A DNA stretch of 64,000 bases from Bdellovibrio sp. (lineage in GTDB: Bacteria > Bdellovibrionota > Bdellovibrionia > Bdellovibrionales > Bdellovibrionaceae), in the NCBI GenBank assembly GCA_036676395.1, contig JAKFCY010000003.1, positions 32,001-96,000 of the forward strand, in the 5' to 3' direction. The notes beneath the pieces are model-generated. The model was given only the letters and a program-made list of their open reading frames with translations, made no database searches and was not told the DNA's origin. The first letter of the stretch is position 1, and every line of letters begins with the position of its first letter. Both the position numbers and the translations under genes were made by a program. Below are positions 50,682 through 56,098 of the stretch, piece by piece.

Positions 50682-52646
50682 ATGGAAACAGTTCCGTCGT
50701 CGTCATCGACACCTTTACAAACTTTTGCTTACTCAAAAGAAGCTTCTTGGAGCCCTGAAAAAAGTGCTGCCCTGTACGGAATCAATAACTGGGGTAACGG
50801 TTATTTTCGCGTAAACAATAACGGTAACGTTGCGGTAACTCCATTTTCTGAAAAAGGCCCATCCGTTGACCTTTACGAATTAACCCAAGAATTACAAGAT
50901 CGCGGTATTCGCGTTCCGATCATGATTCGTTTTCCAGATATCATTAACCAACGCGTGCAATTGATTCACTCTTGCTTTAACAAAGCGATGACTGAATACA
51001 GCTACAAAGGCCAATTTTGCGGCGTGTACCCAATCAAAGTAAATCAACAGCGTCACCTGGTTCAGGAATTAGTGCGCTTTGGTAAAAACTGTAAACTTGG
51101 TTTAGAGTGCGGCTCTAAACCAGAATTACTAGTGGTTCTTTCTTTAATGAATACTCCAGATGCAGTGATCGTATGTAATGGCTTCAAAGATGCTGAATAT
51201 ATCGAAACTGCGTTACTAGCGCAAAAATTAGGTCGTCAGATTATCATCGTTGTCGATCGTAAAGATGAATTAAAACTCATCATGGATGCGGCGAAAAAAT
51301 TATCTATTAAACCAAAAATTGGTTTCCGCGCGAAATTAAACACGCAAGGTGCCGGCAAATGGGTTGATTCAGCAGGCGCTCGTTCTAAGTTCGGTTTAAC
51401 TGCGGCTGAAATCGTTGAAGGTGTAGAAACTCTTCGTAATGCCGGCATGTTAGATTGTTTAGAATTACTTCATTATCATATCGGCTCACAGGTTCCGTCG
51501 ATCCAATCTATTAAATCTTCATTAAAAGAAGCAGCTCGCTTCTATGTGGAATTACACTTTTTAGGTGCAAAACTTAAGTATATCGATGTAGGTGGCGGCC
51601 TTGGCGTTGATTACGATGGTTCAGGTCACTCTGATTCTTCGGTAAATTACTCTGAGCAAGAGTACGCAAATGACGTGGTTTCAACGATTCAAACACTTTG
51701 TGATGAAAAAAATATTCCACATCCAAATATTATCACTGAATCAGGCCGTGCGTTAGTTGCGCATCACTCGATTTTAATTTTCAACGTGATGGGCGTAAAT
51801 AATCTTTACCGTCAACAACCACCAAATCCTGCAACTAAAAAAGATCCATCAATCATGCAGGATCTTCAGTACATCTTTGAAAAGTTAACTCCTGAAAATC
51901 TGAACGAGTGCTTCAATGATACTATGCAGGCAAAAAATGAGATCTTAAATTTATTCACTTACGGTGTATTAAATTTAACTCAACGTGCTTGGTGCGAAAA
52001 CATGCACTTCACAATCGCAACGAAAATGTTAGAACTTGCACGCAGAACGCCTGATTGCGAAGACATCGTTGAACAATTGCGCGAAGAGCTTTGCGATACT
52101 TATTTCTGTAACTTCTCGGTCTTCCAATCAGTTCCAGATTCTTGGGCTGTGGGTCAGTTATTTCCGGTTATGCCGATTCATAATCTTTCGCAAGAACCAC
52201 ACCATGAGGCTACAATTGCCGACTTAACATGTGATTCTGACGGTAAGATCGAAAAATTCATCGACACTGAAACTGGCGAATTCAAAAAAACATTAAGAAT
52301 TCACCCGTTCAAAGAAGGTGATCCTCCATACTTCTTAGGAATATTTTTAACAGGTGCTTACCAAGAGATCTTAGGCGATTTACATAATTTATTCGGTGAC
52401 ACCGATGCGGTTCACATTTCGATCCACGAATCTGGTTACACCGTAGATCACTACGTACCAGGCGACACAGTAACTGAAGTATTAAGTTACGTTCAGTACG
52501 GCCGCGCAGAAATGGTTGATAGCGTTCGCCAATACACTGAAGAATCAATCGCCTCAGGCGGTATTACTAAGTTAGAAGCCAAAGCATTGTTAAAACACTA
52601 CGAAGAAGGTTTATCAGGCTACACTTACTTAGAAGAGATGGAATAG
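50682..52646 (+). CDS. speA: Biosynthetic arginine decarboxylase
   Basis: YPIKVNQ, CNGFKD, HIGSQ, DVGGGLGVDYDG and DLTCDSDG. Confidence 0.97.
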   Translation: METVPSSSSTPLQTFAYSKEASWSPEKSAALYGINNWGNGYFRVNNNGNVAVTPFSEKGPSVDLYELTQELQDRGIRVPIMIRFPDIINQRVQLIHSCFNKAMTEYSYKGQFCGVYPIKVNQQRHLVQELVRFGKNCKLGLECGSKPELLVVLSLMNTPDAVIVCNGFKDAEYIETALLAQKLGRQIIIVVDRKDELKLIMDAAKKLSIKPKIGFRAKLNTQGAGKWVDSAGARSKFGLTAAEIVEGVETLRNAGMLDCLELLHYHIGSQVPSIQSIKSSLKEAARFYVELHFLGAKLKYIDVGGGLGVDYDGSGHSDSSVNYSEQEYANDVVSTIQTLCDEKNIPHPNIITESGRALVAHHSILIFNVMGVNNLYRQQPPNPATKKDPSIMQDLQYIFEKLTPENLNECFNDTMQAKNEILNLFTYGVLNLTQRAWCENMHFTIATKMLELARRTPDCEDIVEQLREELCDTYFCNFSVFQSVPDSWAVGQLFPVMPIHNLSQEPHHEATIADLTCDSDGKIEKFIDTETGEFKKTLRIHPFKEGDPPYFLGIFLTGAYQEILGDLHNLFGDTDAVHISIHESGYTVDHYVPGDTVTEVLSYVQYGRAEMVDSVRQYTEESIASGGITKLEAKALLKHYEEGLSGYTYLEEME

Positions 52647-52670
52647 GTGCCAGGCCCTATTCCTGGTAAC
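52644..52670 (+). repeat. REP-like repeat copy 4
   Basis: TAGGTGCCAGGCCCTATTCCTGGTAAC; the TAG is the speA stop. Confidence 0.85.
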
Positions 52671-52680
52671 GAGGCGTCAA

Positions 52681-53064
52681 ATGAATACAAATAAAAAAGT
52701 TTTCGCAAGTTTAAGTTTATTAATTGCAGCTGTTGTTACAGTTGCGACTTCTAAACAAGAAGAAGAAACTGAATACTCTTATTTTGGCGCTGCTTCAACC
52801 TGCGCTAACGCTACGACGACTAATCAAGCGATCAGCGTTTCATTTGGTTCAATCATAACTCCTGCAGGCATGACGTTTGTAGACTTAGGCATTCCTAAGA
52901 CGACATTAAATGTCGCAACAGATACAACAGTGTCTGGAACCATTGCCGGTGGCTTAGCTCGTGTTTGTACTTATTCATTAAATACAACCAGTGGCACGCT
53001 ACATGTGTATAGTTGTTCAGATAACAGCAATCCCGTTTGCCAAGTTAGTTTTACTCCGCAGTAG
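52681..53064 (+). CDS. Exported Thr-rich hypothetical protein
   Basis: Hydrophobic N-terminus; four Cys. Confidence 0.7.
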   Translation: MNTNKKVFASLSLLIAAVVTVATSKQEEETEYSYFGAASTCANATTTNQAISVSFGSIITPAGMTFVDLGIPKTTLNVATDTTVSGTIAGGLARVCTYSLNTTSGTLHVYSCSDNSNPVCQVSFTPQ

Positions 53065-53485
53065 TTCTATTTTCAAAAAATCTACGGCCAAAAAAATAAC
53101 ACGCAAGACTTGCGCTTACAGCAACTAAGTCTGTGGGATCACTTGTCACCACAATCGCAAACACATGATTTGAAAACCACTGCACAAATAAATCTTTAAT
53201 ATTCGCATTCAATTTCATTATACAAAACACAACGTCAGTAAAAACGATTGCCGCCAGCAACAGTCCTCGATTAAAAACAAAGTCTTTACGAAAAAGTCGC
53301 ACTAGCAACACGACAACAGCACATAGAAATAACGGAAAATAAAATAACCCCGTAAAATCCGATAGTTTACCGGTAATCATTCCCGCAAATTGATATTTTA
53401 AATAATGATCATTCACGCCTGTCAGAACCACAGCTAACAGCGGCAAGGGATGAATAAAAAAATGAATCGGCTTAAATGAATTCAC
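53051..53485 (-). CDS. Hypothetical integral membrane protein
   Basis: Four hydrophobic segments; NDHYLK, TGKLSDFTGL and DPTDL look like family motifs. Confidence 0.8.
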   Translation of the reverse strand: MNSFKPIHFFIHPLPLLAVVLTGVNDHYLKYQFAGMITGKLSDFTGLFYFPLFLCAVVVLLVRLFRKDFVFNRGLLLAAIVFTDVVFCIMKLNANIKDLFVQWFSNHVFAIVVTSDPTDLVAVSASLACYFFGRRFFENRTTAE

Positions 53486-53524
53486 TTATAAAACTATAAC
53501 TGAAAAACCTGGTTCTCAAAATGC

Positions 53525-53559
53525 AAAAAGCGAAATGGACTTAGGCCACTTCGCTTTTT
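53525..53559 (-). terminator. Intrinsic terminator
   Basis: AAAAAGCGAAGTGG-CCTAAGT-CCATTTCGCTTTTT. Confidence 0.8.
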
Positions 53560-53621
53560 ATTGTTTTTCGTCTCCGACCTGACTGGGAAGGAGTCCGAAT
53601 GACGGATTTTACATCTACCTA
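53525..53621 (-). ncRNA. Putative antisense sRNA (~95 nt, two hairpins), candidate type I antitoxin
   Basis: Promoter TTAA-N15-TCCGATAC (53654-53628); hairpin with CCTTCCC loop; terminator at 53525-53559; G-U pairs fit the minus strand. Confidence 0.65.
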
Positions 53622-53721
53622 TGTAAAGTATCGGAATTTGCGCAAAAATCTTAAGTATTACTTACGGCTAGTTTTAATTCTCTTAGAGATTTTAAGACGC
53701 ATAGTCGATTTGATATCTTAG
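53599..53721 (+). CDS. 40-aa basic amphipathic peptide, candidate type I toxin (absent from the ORF track)
   Basis: GGGAAGGAG SD 5 nt before ATG; MTDFTSTYVKYRNLRKNLKYYLRLVLILLEILRRIVDLIS. Confidence 0.65.
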   Translation: MTDFTSTYVKYRNLRKNLKYYLRLVLILLEILRRIVDLIS

Positions 53722-53850
53722 TTTTTAGCGGGACGCTTTCTTAGCTCACCAATACGTACACTAATTTGGTTAGGATACGAGATGACTGATGATCGATACC
53801 TATGACTGTAGTTATCGAAGTGTCGTGGCTTTAAGTCCACGTTTTAAAAT

Positions 53851-53881
53851 AAAAAAGACCGATCCTAAGATCAGCCTTTTT
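53851..53881 (-). terminator. Intrinsic terminator after the 53910 gene (possibly bidirectional)
   Basis: AAAAAGGCTGATC-TTAG-GATCGGTCTTTTTT on the minus strand. Confidence 0.8.
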
Positions 53882-53909
53882 CAAAGATTTCGAATGTTAA
53901 TTCAAAAAA

Positions 53910-55286
53910 TTACTTTTTATCAAAAAATGTAGCGCGTGTGAATGAAGTCACATCAACGATGCGGCCTAAACCTAAATCTACGCGAATAGAGTTAGCCGAT
54001 AAGTTTAATAATTCGCCGTCATTAGTTAAGCCAACCATAGTGCTAGCCGCTTTATGAACGCGCTTTACGTCTGCATCAACGGCTACGTTGTTAGCAGCAG
54101 TGATTTTACCAGTCGTACCTTCACAAGAGATTTTTACTACACCTTTAGTTGTATTAACATAAGCGTAGTTTTTCTCTGGAGTGTAACCTTCAGTATAAAC
54201 GATTGATAGGGCTTCACCGCCACCAAGCTGAACTTCGTTAGCTTGTGCTGGATTTTGACGTTTATCACAGAAAAATTTAACTTTAGTTTTTTCAACACGA
54301 GCATTCCATGTCCATGCGAAGTAGTAATCAACAACGTTTGCACGAGTCGCTGCATTGTCATTGTATTCGCCAGAAAGTGGAGAAATTTCGCCAGTTTGAA
54401 AAATTCTAGACATAGCTAAGTTTTTGTCTTCGGGAATAAAAACCAAGCCCATTTTGCTTTTTACAAATTGACCGTAGTTTTCAGTTTTACCGATGAGCTT
54501 AGCCGTTTTTAAGTTAGCATCGATGTGAAACATTTCACGATCAGCAGTTAAAGCTAAGAAAGCCTCTTCTTTATTGATAGTTACCGGAGTTTGAAATGCT
54601 TCAGCAGCATAAATCAAAGACGATGCTTGTGCTAAGGCACGGTGTGCAGGGTGAATGTCTTTACCGTAAGCGCCAAGTTGTGCGTAAGTTTCAACTGTTA
54701 CAGCGTATGAACCTGCATCAGAGATTTTTTTATCACAAGCACCGTTAAGACCAGCGCGAGGACCTTGCGAACAAGTTGTGTGTGGGTAACCTTCGATGTG
54801 ACGTGCTTCATGCATAAATACAGAAGCTAAATCAAGCGGAGTAAATGCAGGCGTTAAAGCCATCGGGCAAACGTGCATTGTGTTTTGGTGAAAAAATCCG
54901 TAAACGAAAGCGATCACACCTTGTGGGCATGATTTTTCGATAGCGAAAGTTTTTACTAAGTTAGTTGTGTATTTATACCAATCACCAGCAAAAGTGCCTT
55001 TGAATAAATCATCAGGGCTATTTGTCATAGGCTGAGTGAATTGCACTTTACGGATGTAGTGGATACCCGCAAGTAAGTAAGCTTCTTCTGAACCATCATT
55101 GCAATATTCTTTGCCAGATAGTTTTGCGAATTGTTTAAAGTCTTTCGCGATTTGAGTCATATCTGCTGCAGGAATACAGCTGCCTGCATCTGTGCCTGGA
55201 GTTGGCTCTGTGATTGGGCCGATGCCGATTTGAGCTTGTGCTGATAAAGAAAAACCAAGCACTACTGCTAATAATAATTGTTTCAT
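53910..55286 (-). CDS. Secreted HExxH metallopeptidase-like protein
   Basis: Signal peptide from ATG 55286 (AGGGGG SD); FMHEARHIEG. Confidence 0.75.
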   Translation of the reverse strand: MKQLLLAVVLGFSLSAQAQIGIGPITEPTPGTDAGSCIPAADMTQIAKDFKQFAKLSGKEYCNDGSEEAYLLAGIHYIRKVQFTQPMTNSPDDLFKGTFAGDWYKYTTNLVKTFAIEKSCPQGVIAFVYGFFHQNTMHVCPMALTPAFTPLDLASVFMHEARHIEGYPHTTCSQGPRAGLNGACDKKISDAGSYAVTVETYAQLGAYGKDIHPAHRALAQASSLIYAAEAFQTPVTINKEEAFLALTADREMFHIDANLKTAKLIGKTENYGQFVKSKMGLVFIPEDKNLAMSRIFQTGEISPLSGEYNDNAATRANVVDYYFAWTWNARVEKTKVKFFCDKRQNPAQANEVQLGGGEALSIVYTEGYTPEKNYAYVNTTKGVVKISCEGTTGKITAANNVAVDADVKRVHKAASTMVGLTNDGELLNLSANSIRVDLGLGRIVDVTSFTRATFFDKK

Positions 55287-55357
55287 GTGACTGCCCCCCT
55301 TGGTGTCGCCAAAGAGTTCACCCCAAAATGGAACCAGTTTCAACAAGATTTCGTCAG

Positions 55358-56098
55358 TTATTTCGAGATTTCTTTGAGTTTATTCTGAGCGTAATTTTTA
55401 ACACCGGGATCTTTTACACTGCGACTTAATTTTGTCAGCTCAGCTAAGGCCTTATTCGCTGCCGCAACATCATCGCCTCGCGCTAAATCTGCAAGTCGAT
55501 TAATTGCTAAAACGCGTAATGCGCGCTCTTGCACTTGCTGCGTCTCAGCCAAACTATGAGCTTCGGGCTTACCATCAAGCTTAATCGGGCTCAGAACTAA
55601 GGCAGAAAGATCGGCCACATTCGCATATCCTGCATAACCTAATAAATAGGCCGCAAGAATTCGATCATTTACATTCGGAGACTTCGCGCGAGCCACCATC
55701 GCTAATTGCTTAAATTGTGCTGGCGTCATCTTGTTTGTTATCTGCAGATAACGTTGCTGCACGACTTCTTCATTTACATTGTACTGATTCATTAATTTTA
55801 CTTCAGCGTCAAACCACTCTTTAAATTGATTTGGCGTTACTTCCGACGGATCAAAAGCAGGCAAAGCTGCCTGAGCCGCTGCTGCTGTAGCTGAAACCGC
55901 GTGAGCTTCAGCAGCTCCTGCAAAACCACCCGCTTGTTTTTTGCCTTTGATTTTTTCACTGACCGCTGCGGTTACAGATTTAATTTCATACAGTGGTGTG
56001 CGGCCAAATAGAATCCAATCAACTAAAGCCAGCAATACAACTAAGATTAAAAAACCAAAGAATAATTTTTTATTAAACCACTCACTGGAAAATTTCAT
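55358..56098 (-). CDS. Membrane-anchored helical (HEAT-like) hypothetical protein
   Basis: N-terminal TM, Ala-rich linker and helical C-terminus. Confidence 0.7.
   Translation of the reverse strand: MKFSSEWFNKKLFFGFLILVVLLALVDWILFGRTPLYEIKSVTAAVSEKIKGKKQAGGFAGAAEAHAVSATAAAAQAALPAFDPSEVTPNQFKEWFDAEVKLMNQYNVNEEVVQQRYLQITNKMTPAQFKQLAMVARAKSPNVNDRILAAYLLGYAGYANVADLSALVLSPIKLDGKPEAHSLAETQQVQERALRVLAINRLADLARGDDVAAANKALAELTKLSRSVKDPGVKNYAQNKLKEISK

Follow-up and report, generated by a model that had tools for sequence, protein, structure and literature searches.

A peptide gene and a predicted overlapping antisense gene in one spacer

We analysed a 64,000-nucleotide (nt) stretch of DNA from Bdellovibrio sp. 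(NCBI GenBank assembly GCA_036676395.1, contig JAKFCY010000003.1, positions 32,001 to 96,000 of the forward strand), referred to here as the window. Within it, a spacer of 424 bases separates two minus-strand open reading frames (ORFs), 53051-53485 and 53910-55346. The spacer holds a module of about 344 bp (53501-53844, assigned to neither strand as a whole) that behaves as a presence/absence unit. It combines a 40-codon ORF on the plus strand (53599-53721) with a predicted antisense RNA gene on the minus strand that covers the start of this ORF. A first-pass annotation, made from the sequence alone, had proposed a hidden type I toxin-antitoxin-like locus at this site; its intergenic ORF, with the quoted product of 40 amino acids (aa) and a strong Shine-Dalgarno (SD) sequence, is present, and all the sequence blocks that it quoted were found in the window. 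The existence of a conserved peptide-plus-antisense module is, in our judgement, very probable. That this module represents a new type I toxin-antitoxin-like family of Bdellovibrio-like predators is the reading that we favour, with a confidence somewhat better than even.

The ORF (MTDF...VDLIS) encodes a basic N-terminal half followed by a hydrophobic C-terminal helix, and its SD sequence GGGAAGGAG lies at 53585-53593 on the plus strand. For comparison, 41 non-redundant copies of the module were extracted, five duplicate loci and two chance matches having been excluded beforehand. An ORF of 36-45 aa was found in all 41 copies, and an ATG with a strong SD sequence in 38 of them. In the C-terminal half, codon position 2 was far less variable than positions 1 and 3, giving a three-base periodicity. 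Over the last 19 codons, the ratio of nonsynonymous to synonymous substitution rates (dN/dS) had a median of 0.315 in 292 copy pairs, with dN below dS in 98% of the pairs, as against 2.07 in the other frame that served as the control; the third frame is closed by stops. Judged by this substitution pattern, the ORF is under purifying selection. The Kyte-Doolittle maximum over 19 residues reached at least 1.6 in 34 of the 41 copies, and the net charge of the N-terminal part had a median of +5 across the 41. Among the five listed of 30 Atlas language-model neighbours of the peptide, the only named clusters were TisB (0.82) and DinQ (0.80), scores that serve as leads only.

The remaining three copies form a subfamily with ATC at the position of the ATG (L002 at G000:C2:204694-204804, where G000 is the genome under study, together with L020 and L022) and have no other in-frame start after the SD sequence. 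Their 40-codon frame is nonetheless open and conserved; these copies could use a very weak start codon or could be silenced.

A predicted antisense RNA with a FliA-type promoter and a conserved terminator

On the minus strand within the ORF lies a predicted sigma28 (FliA)-type promoter, TTAAGATT-N11-TCCGATAC (53654-53628), as the first-pass annotation had claimed. Its layout of 8+11+8 recurs in 39 of the 41 copies, which share the consensus TTAAG/TTTAG/TTAGC...-N11-(G/T)(C/T)CGA(A/T)A. Sigma28 promoters carry -35 and -10 elements of the form TAAA-N15-GCCGATAA at a fixed spacing, and the minus-strand site fits this pattern, fixed spacing included, as far as sequence can tell. The pattern alone is not beyond chance within the window (one match with 0.20 expected, and at least one match in 19 of 100 shuffles), so the weight of the promoter comes from its conservation across copies. 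The genome under study possesses fliA and has a site of the same type upstream of four of its eight flagellin genes, with the forms TAAAGnnn-N11-GCCGAAAG, TCAAGTTT-N11-TCCGAAAA and TAAAGTTT-N11-GTCGATAA. Karunker et al. (2013; PMC3627812) reported 140 mapped attack-phase promoters of B. bacteriovorus, of which 92 carry TTAAG-N16-CCGATA, a motif assigned there to FliA. The FliA-type character that had been proposed for the module promoter is borne out by its identity in type with both the flagellin promoters of its own genome and this attack-phase motif; the spacing is N15 in the module and at the flagellin sites, against N16 in that paper.

Transcription from this promoter would give an antisense RNA of about 100 nt (53520-53621, minus strand), both ends of which are set by the positions of the promoter and the terminator. 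It would be perfectly complementary to the 5' untranslated region (UTR) of the peptide mRNA, the SD sequence, the start codon and codons 1-8. The terminator occupies 53518-53554 on the minus strand, with a stem of 53554-53546 and 53538-53530, a 7-nt loop and then UUUUUGCAUUUU. In this hairpin (GCGAAGUGG/CCAUUUCGC plus a U-run), one G.U pair of the minus strand would be A.C on the plus strand.

The antisense region was described by a covariance model with a hand-drawn structure (R1). R1 scored the copy at 53501-53844 with 96.8 bits and retrieved loci of other genera outside its building set, among them L187-L189 at 68-74 bits. In 57 R1 matches, the terminator helix was 92.1% paired, 10 of its 11 pairs were changed on both sides, and G.U pairs on the minus strand outnumbered A.C by 34 to 10, in an alignment that is fitted to the model and among copies that are related. 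A model-independent test found that the minus strand gives the more stable terminator in 27 of 39 copies. The minus-strand terminator of the first-pass annotation is present and conserved, co-varies, and has G.U pairs that favour the minus strand. Over the whole of R1, 81.3% of the cells were paired, compared with 69.6% in shuffles; the covariation score was 0.376, compared with 0.186 in shuffles and at most 0.097 with slid partners, and none of 500 shuffles reached 0.376, shuffle counts that are not probabilities. The CCTTCCC loop that the annotation had placed in the antisense RNA as an anti-SD element was confirmed in part: a CCUUCCC stretch exists, but in the minus-strand fold it lies partly in a stem and forms no clean loop.

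Two further structures lie around the start of the ORF. The start codon sits in the loop of a small hairpin, UCCG-AAUGA-CGGA (53594-53606, plus strand). In alignment A3, columns 25-28 and 55-58 form its helix, which reached 86.7% pairing among 57 sequences and also appeared in an RNAalifold consensus of seven copies. Most copies have NCG as their second codon, an indication of a constraint at the nucleotide level. Codons 3-10, which show no codon periodicity, contain a hairpin (UUUACAU...AUGUAAA; 53607-53627, strand not assigned) whose arm sequences vary between copies. All seven of its pairs were changed on both sides, with only 55-65% of the cells paired in the model-fitted alignment. In 29 of 39 copies the minus strand gave the more stable form of this hairpin, yet with a sigma28 start near 53621 its 5' arm would not belong to the antisense RNA.

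A combination of MAFFT and RNAalifold applied to 39 antisense RNAs returned almost no structure (-0.19 kcal/mol), the variable hairpin arms having been misaligned, and was set aside. A simple promoter and terminator scan of 53300-54100 gave no terminator and no relevant sigma70 site, with a loop limit of 3-8 nt that admits the 7-nt loop.

The peptide mRNA is predicted to fold back on itself

The peptide mRNA is predicted to extend over about 300 nt (53536-53841, plus strand) and to close end to end, with a minimum free energy (MFE) of -97.1 kcal/mol. For 53520-53881, the plus strand folded at -107 kcal/mol (z -4.93; none of 100 shuffles as good) and the minus strand at -93.9 kcal/mol (z -3.92). 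The first-pass annotation had drawn three nested helices on the plus strand. Two of them were recovered in the MFE structure of 53536-53841, namely the outer helix (53536-53553 with 53821-53839) and the second one (53569-53579 with 53768-53779). The third, between the SD block (53583-53596) and the anti-SD stretch GGACGCUUUCUUAG directly after the stop codon (53731-53744, plus strand), also formed, with 13 of 14 positions paired in the MFE structure and the SD sequence itself opposite 53734-53742, but it is not general in the family. The 3'UTR served as the partner of the SD sequence only in the subgroup to which the window copy belongs; elsewhere the predicted partner was either the end of the ORF or, within the 5'UTR, a CUCU/CCUC stretch. 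In seven close copies, RNAalifold preferred a local CUCC:GGAG hairpin, and the anti-SD stretch at 53731-53744 was not in the consensus. The pairing probability of the SD sequence averaged 0.76 over 30 folded copies with varying partners. The mRNA structure is thus predicted to hide the ribosome binding site, with a partner that varies between copies.

The 3' partner of the outer helix consists of CGAAGUG..GUGGCUUUAAGUCCA, a local hairpin GUGG...CCAC and then GUUUU (53816-53845, plus strand), and pairs with 53536-53553. The proposed covariation of the fold-back was supported by the comparison of copies, as cognate 5'/3' duplexes had a mean of -24.1 kcal/mol and non-cognate ones of -15.4 kcal/mol. 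In 20 of 40 copies the cognate 3' partner outranked all others among the 40, and in 29 of 40 it was one of the top three. Since the fold-back sequences are wholly different between subfamilies, it is the complementarity itself that is preserved. A T-run usually follows the 3' partner, which amounts to the antisense terminator in inverted form. Placing the mRNA start by the edge of complementarity was uninformative, as the complementarity continues through the A-tract and T-run of both terminators.

Inverted repeats at both ends of a multicopy unit would also be expected of a miniature inverted-repeat mobile element, in which the repeats merely mimic a fold-back and the ORF and promoters are incidental. 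The behaviour of the unit in relatives, where it is wholly present or wholly absent at one site, agrees with this explanation. In the relative G018 (L010), the flanks can be aligned (52004-53500 at 87.5%; 53845-55404 at 95%) and about 10 bases replace 53501-53844. No target-site duplication was seen at this empty site, and its junction resembles a deletion between two AAAAT(G/A)(C/A)AAAAAG repeats. The repeats match within a copy but differ completely between copies, so that they reflect selection for pairing and not a shared transposase site; the terminal repeats common to all copies that such an element would have were not found. Together with the purifying selection on the ORF and the conservation of the promoters at fixed places, these features make a mobile element a highly improbable explanation.

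Downstream of the anti-SD stretch, the 3'UTR carries the single-stranded motif UCACCAAUACGUACA (53746-53760, plus strand), which is unpaired in the MFE structure and recurs as a CCAAC(G/A)UGUAC-like sequence after the stop codon in most copies. A further 3'UTR hairpin with the conserved loop UGACUG (53794-53817, plus strand) came from RNAalifold on seven copies; its pairs 284-288 with 305-309 were changed on both sides in one to four of the seven sequences each. In its strict form, CACCAA-N1-3-CGTACA, the single-stranded motif has only four sites in the 3.4-Mb genome: the module 3'UTR, the 5'UTRs of two flagellin genes (G000:C2:376415 and G000:C2:2513716, in mRNA orientation) and C2:965711. 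It is possibly a common binding site for an RNA or a protein, through which the module and flagellin control would be connected.

This hint of a link to the flagellar regulon raises the question of whether the main product is the sigma28-driven RNA, acting in trans on other mRNAs as a small RNA (sRNA) through its C/U-rich anti-SD stretch, with the peptide mRNA as a secondary target or sponge. The antisense module is the best conserved part of the family at the nucleotide level, and one copy (L011), in which the ORF is broken and the downstream part is gone, has retained it. However, purifying selection clearly acts on the C-terminal half of the ORF, a part that the antisense RNA does not cover, and complementarity of the anti-SD stretch to its own mRNA follows from the antisense arrangement. 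No signal emerged for pairing of the antisense RNA with the conserved 3'UTR motif of its own mRNA (z averaged -0.12 and was below -2 in 3 of 39 copies). We regard an sRNA that acts mainly in trans as improbable.

A sigma54-like element at a fixed distance from the peptide gene

Upstream of the predicted mRNA, the plus strand carries the -24/-12 element TGGTTCTCAAAATGCA of the form GG-N10-GC (53510-53525), which resembles a sigma54 promoter. The occurrence of this element at a fixed distance from the peptide mRNA is new here. In 40 of the 41 copies the pattern [GA]G-N8-[ACT]TG[CTA][AT] preceded the start codon, at a distance of 71-75 nt or, in one case, of 80 nt. The element has the form TGGyyy..AAAATGCA, with TGGCAC in some copies and AG, GT or GA in a few. 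It was also found at the equivalent place in 12 of 13 loci of other genera. Its GG lies 18 nt beyond the stem of the antisense terminator, and the antisense RNA therefore cannot account for its conservation. A start 12 nt after the GC would be 53536, where the fold-back begins; the mRNA start near 53536 was placed in this way and not by mapping. The genome encodes rpoN and 12 strong sigma54 activators. On the side against a sigma54 promoter, the -12 part reads ATGCA instead of TTGCA, no conserved upstream activator site was seen among the copies, and the other matches of the -24/-12 matrix in the genome form no obvious regulon. On balance, the peptide mRNA promoter is likely to be of the sigma54 type, a prediction drawn from conserved position and form.

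In the genome scan with the matrix, the top matches were the five copies of the module and two other sites, G000:C6:21089 (-) and G000:C2:831614 (-), with scores of 23.0 and 20.5, as high as those of true copies. Neither of these is followed by the module hairpin; the second is situated 82 nt ahead of an ORF of 148 aa whose beginning is signal-like. Further matches upstream of genes (18 with a downstream ORF) had no obvious flagellar link. A canonical sigma54 promoter, TGGCAT-N5-TTGCT, was noted at G000:C2:331272, 92 nt before an flgF-like rod gene (331364), and the C-terminal helix-turn-helix of an NtrC-type activator ends directly upstream of an flgB-like gene. These observations suggest a sigma54 tier in the flagellar cascade of this organism.

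The module is a multicopy family of Bdellovibrio-like bacteria

The locus occurs in several copies and is conserved in relatives. With a profile built from the 41 peptides (A1), five copies were located in the genome under study, and a DNA search located two diverged copies elsewhere in this genome and several in relatives. In a six-frame search with the 40-aa peptide (E up to 1), matches were obtained in 36 of the 52 genomes of the genus, or in 26 of 31 when only good-quality genomes were counted, with up to seven matches per genome and tandem ones among them. At E up to 0.01, profile A1 matched 51 of 401 genomes sampled from the phylum; these included 33 of the 52 genomes of the same GTDB family and a few in sister families of the order, and weak matches farther out in the phylum were not trusted. 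Within the same GTDB family, the antisense model R1 had matches in 82 of 151 sampled genomes, spread over 22 of 41 genera and numbering up to 12 per genome. In the genome under study, the five best-scoring R1 matches at E up to 1 were the five peptide sites; a sixth, weak match lay on the opposite strand of the 53501-53844 locus itself. One genome, G198, held no convincing copy (best E 0.56 with the RNA model and 0.32 with the peptide profile).

The profile search of 1.84 billion representative proteins (E up to 0.001) returned 235 clusters, nearly all of 36-45 aa; 17 members examined in ten of these clusters were all unnamed. A word-indexed protein collection yielded only four relatives, none of them named. 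By a pattern scan of the collection, carriers were found among Pseudobdellovibrio, Bdellovibrio and Pseudobdellovibrionaceae genomes, alongside chance matches to unrelated terminators in other phyla; the isolates Pseudobdellovibrio sp. HCB154 and Bdellovibrio sp. qaytius were among those with a pattern match. The first-pass annotation had described the family as one that it did not recognise, in agreement with the database searches: Rfam gave no match in the window at the gathering score, Pfam had no family for the peptide at E up to 10, and NCBIfam gave no meaningful match for it. Rfam candidates at E up to 10 (STnc430, MicC, AgrB and others) were at chance level and driven by the terminator, and were rejected.

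Two of the copies in the genome under study (G000:C2:214648-214737 and G000:C3:191418-191498) belong to a shorter, more hydrophobic subfamily (MRKPNYLRYRRLL...IVITIKSI) that keeps the -24/-12-like element and the antisense module with lower model scores. Modules in tandem, in the same orientation and about 330-700 bases apart, were observed at L043 (G011:C19:8623 and 8975), G023:C172, G051:C517 and L042 (G060:C258).

Five copies here, up to 12 per genome, tandem pairs, an empty site in G018 and the L011 remnant form a population pattern that, as read from the genomes, resembles that of toxin-antitoxin systems. A different account of the same locus is an antisense-controlled small membrane protein that is not toxic and, for example, tunes the flagellar motor or a transporter at the attack/growth transition. 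The sequence evidence for the ORF and its antisense gene fits such a protein equally well. Its helix is amphipathic and charged, and control by sigma28, and perhaps sigma54, resembles developmental regulation and not addiction. Copies at the same site as the window copy were found in four other species (G016, G041, G062 and G067), so that a copy is retained at this site in at least five species. The numerous diverged copies in one genome, the tandem pairs and the gain or loss of the unit at one fixed site are, by contrast, what type I toxin loci typically show, and such a pattern is unusual for a housekeeping small protein. The double silencing by fold-back and antisense RNA also suggests a dangerous product. 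A harmless membrane protein is the strongest competitor of the toxin-antitoxin reading, and we consider it possible though rather unlikely.

Matches in soil metatranscriptomes

Among public sequencing runs, only two contained the stretch, both of them soil metatranscriptomes stored as contigs. Their contigs matched 53549-53783 and 53583-53781, each at 100% identity and inside the module only. The flanks 53000-53548 and 53784-54356 had no contig cover in either run; uncovered parts of the window in two runs are not evidence of silence. As a weak sign, the contigs fit a fairly abundant RNA that reaches beyond the antisense region. Both contigs stop at 53781-53783, short of the predicted mRNA 3' end by about 60 nt and shortly ahead of the 3'UTR hairpin. 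At best, this shared stop hints weakly at an mRNA form that is shortened at its 3' end.

Relation to known type I systems and a model of the module

At the sequence level, the module has the features of a type I pair, namely a gene for a small hydrophobic peptide and an overlapping cis-antisense gene. The likeness to AapA/IsoA and hok/Sok that had been claimed for it holds at the level of layout, without membership by sequence: searches of Rfam, Pfam and NCBIfam did not place the module in AapA/IsoA, Hok/Sok, TisB/IstR, DinQ/AgrB or any other described family.

The closest known layout is that of AapA/IsoA. In AapA1/IsoA1 of Helicobacter pylori, as is predicted for the module, a short mRNA encodes a peptide of about 30-40 aa and is inert by pairing of its 5' and 3' ends, and the antisense RNA covers the 5'UTR and the first part of the ORF, a layout class set out in PMC8594479; both have many chromosomal copies. 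Unlike AapA1/IsoA1, with which it shares no sequence, Rfam or Pfam likeness, the module has an antisense terminator that passes the predicted mRNA start into the mRNA promoter, so that the antisense RNA is not fully overlapped by the mRNA; 3' trimming is merely hinted at by the contig ends. Moreover, the module promoters look sigma28- and sigma54-type, whereas those of AapA1/IsoA1 are housekeeping promoters.

With hok/Sok of plasmid R1 and of chromosomes, the module shares the fold-back of the mRNA ends, a sequestered SD sequence and a short antisense RNA over the region of translation start. It differs in that no mok-like leader ORF was seen and no Hok_Gef match was obtained in the Pfam search, and its antisense RNA overlaps the ORF in the toxin position, whereas Sok lies 5' of the ORF in the layouts given in PMC8594479. 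The peptides of TisB/IstR-1 and DinQ/AgrB of E. coli are, like the present one, single hydrophobic helices with charged residues. The module peptide had no Pfam match to TisB_toxin or DinQ, and the TisB and DinQ toxins are controlled by LexA and not by flagellar sigma factors. The antisense RNAs of these two systems are encoded 5' of the mRNA without overlap, unlike that of the module, according to the same source (PMC8594479).

The likeness to the FliA attack-phase promoters of B. bacteriovorus lies in the shared TTAAG-N-CCGATA motif. PMC3627812 also lists attack-phase-specific sRNAs, with a 'yes' for three of eight in an unlabelled last table column that may denote a FliA site; none of the eight sRNAs could be linked to the module family.

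By analogy with AapA1/IsoA1 and hok/Sok, the full-length mRNA would be translationally inert, with its ends paired and its SD sequence sequestered. The antisense RNA would bind the initiation region, with the result that ribosomes are blocked, the duplex is cleaved, or both. If the antisense RNA dropped and the mRNA opened, perhaps by 3' trimming, the peptide could be made; it might then enter the inner membrane and cause cell arrest or damage. If the mRNA starts from a sigma54-type promoter, as it appears to, the two RNAs would come under two different sigma factors of the flagellar and life cycle.

Several points weigh against a toxin-antitoxin function. The hydrophobic helix bears 1-3 K/R and 0-2 D/E residues, and because of these charges the membrane insertion of the peptide is only a guess; a conserved small membrane protein, moreover, need not be toxic. 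Three of the 41 copies, one of them (L002) in the genome under study, carry ATC in place of the ATG, and the partner of the SD sequence is not conserved across the family. The pair counts in R1 come from an alignment shaped by the model and from related copies. The metatranscriptome contigs give neither strand nor ends, do not prove an origin from RNA and could stem from DNA carry-over. Finally, known antitoxin RNAs are mostly constitutive, and an alternative sigma factor for an antitoxin is unusual.

The arrangement of the promoters allows a more specific and more speculative proposal, in which the two RNAs stand on successive tiers of the flagellar and life-cycle cascade, sigma54, to which rod genes such as flgF would also belong in this genome, for the peptide mRNA, and sigma28/FliA, the late flagellar and attack-phase tier, for its silencer; we hold this to be unlikely as matters stand. 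If it were true, the peptide would be made only when sigma54 activity is unmatched by FliA activity, as in stalled hook-basal-body assembly or on exit from the motile attack phase, and the module would serve predatory bacteria as a checkpoint or as a brake on phase transitions. We know of no described type I system whose toxin and antitoxin are divided over two alternative sigma factors. A type I pair divided between sigma54 and sigma28, or such a locus in Bdellovibrio-like bacteria, was likewise not described in the accessible parts of the literature that we found.

According to the abstract of PMC12390103 (2025), type I toxin-antitoxin systems have so far been found in Proteobacteria, Firmicutes and Tenericutes only, and the words Bdellovibrio and Deltaproteobacteria are absent from PMC8594479 (T1TAdb). 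A type I family across much of the Bdellovibrionaceae would extend this range to obligate bacterial predators and would add hundreds of unannotated small genes, to judge from the 235 protein clusters. Should the sigma factor wiring hold, it would provide a simple link between flagellar and attack-phase control and a membrane-active peptide.

Surroundings of the module

Both flanking ORFs and two further neighbours were without a Pfam match. Beyond the downstream edge of the module, 53855-53881 comprises an A-run, a GAUC...GAUC hairpin and a T-run, and resembles a two-way terminator for the neighbouring ORF 53910-55346. This element lies outside the module, because it is retained at the empty site of G018.

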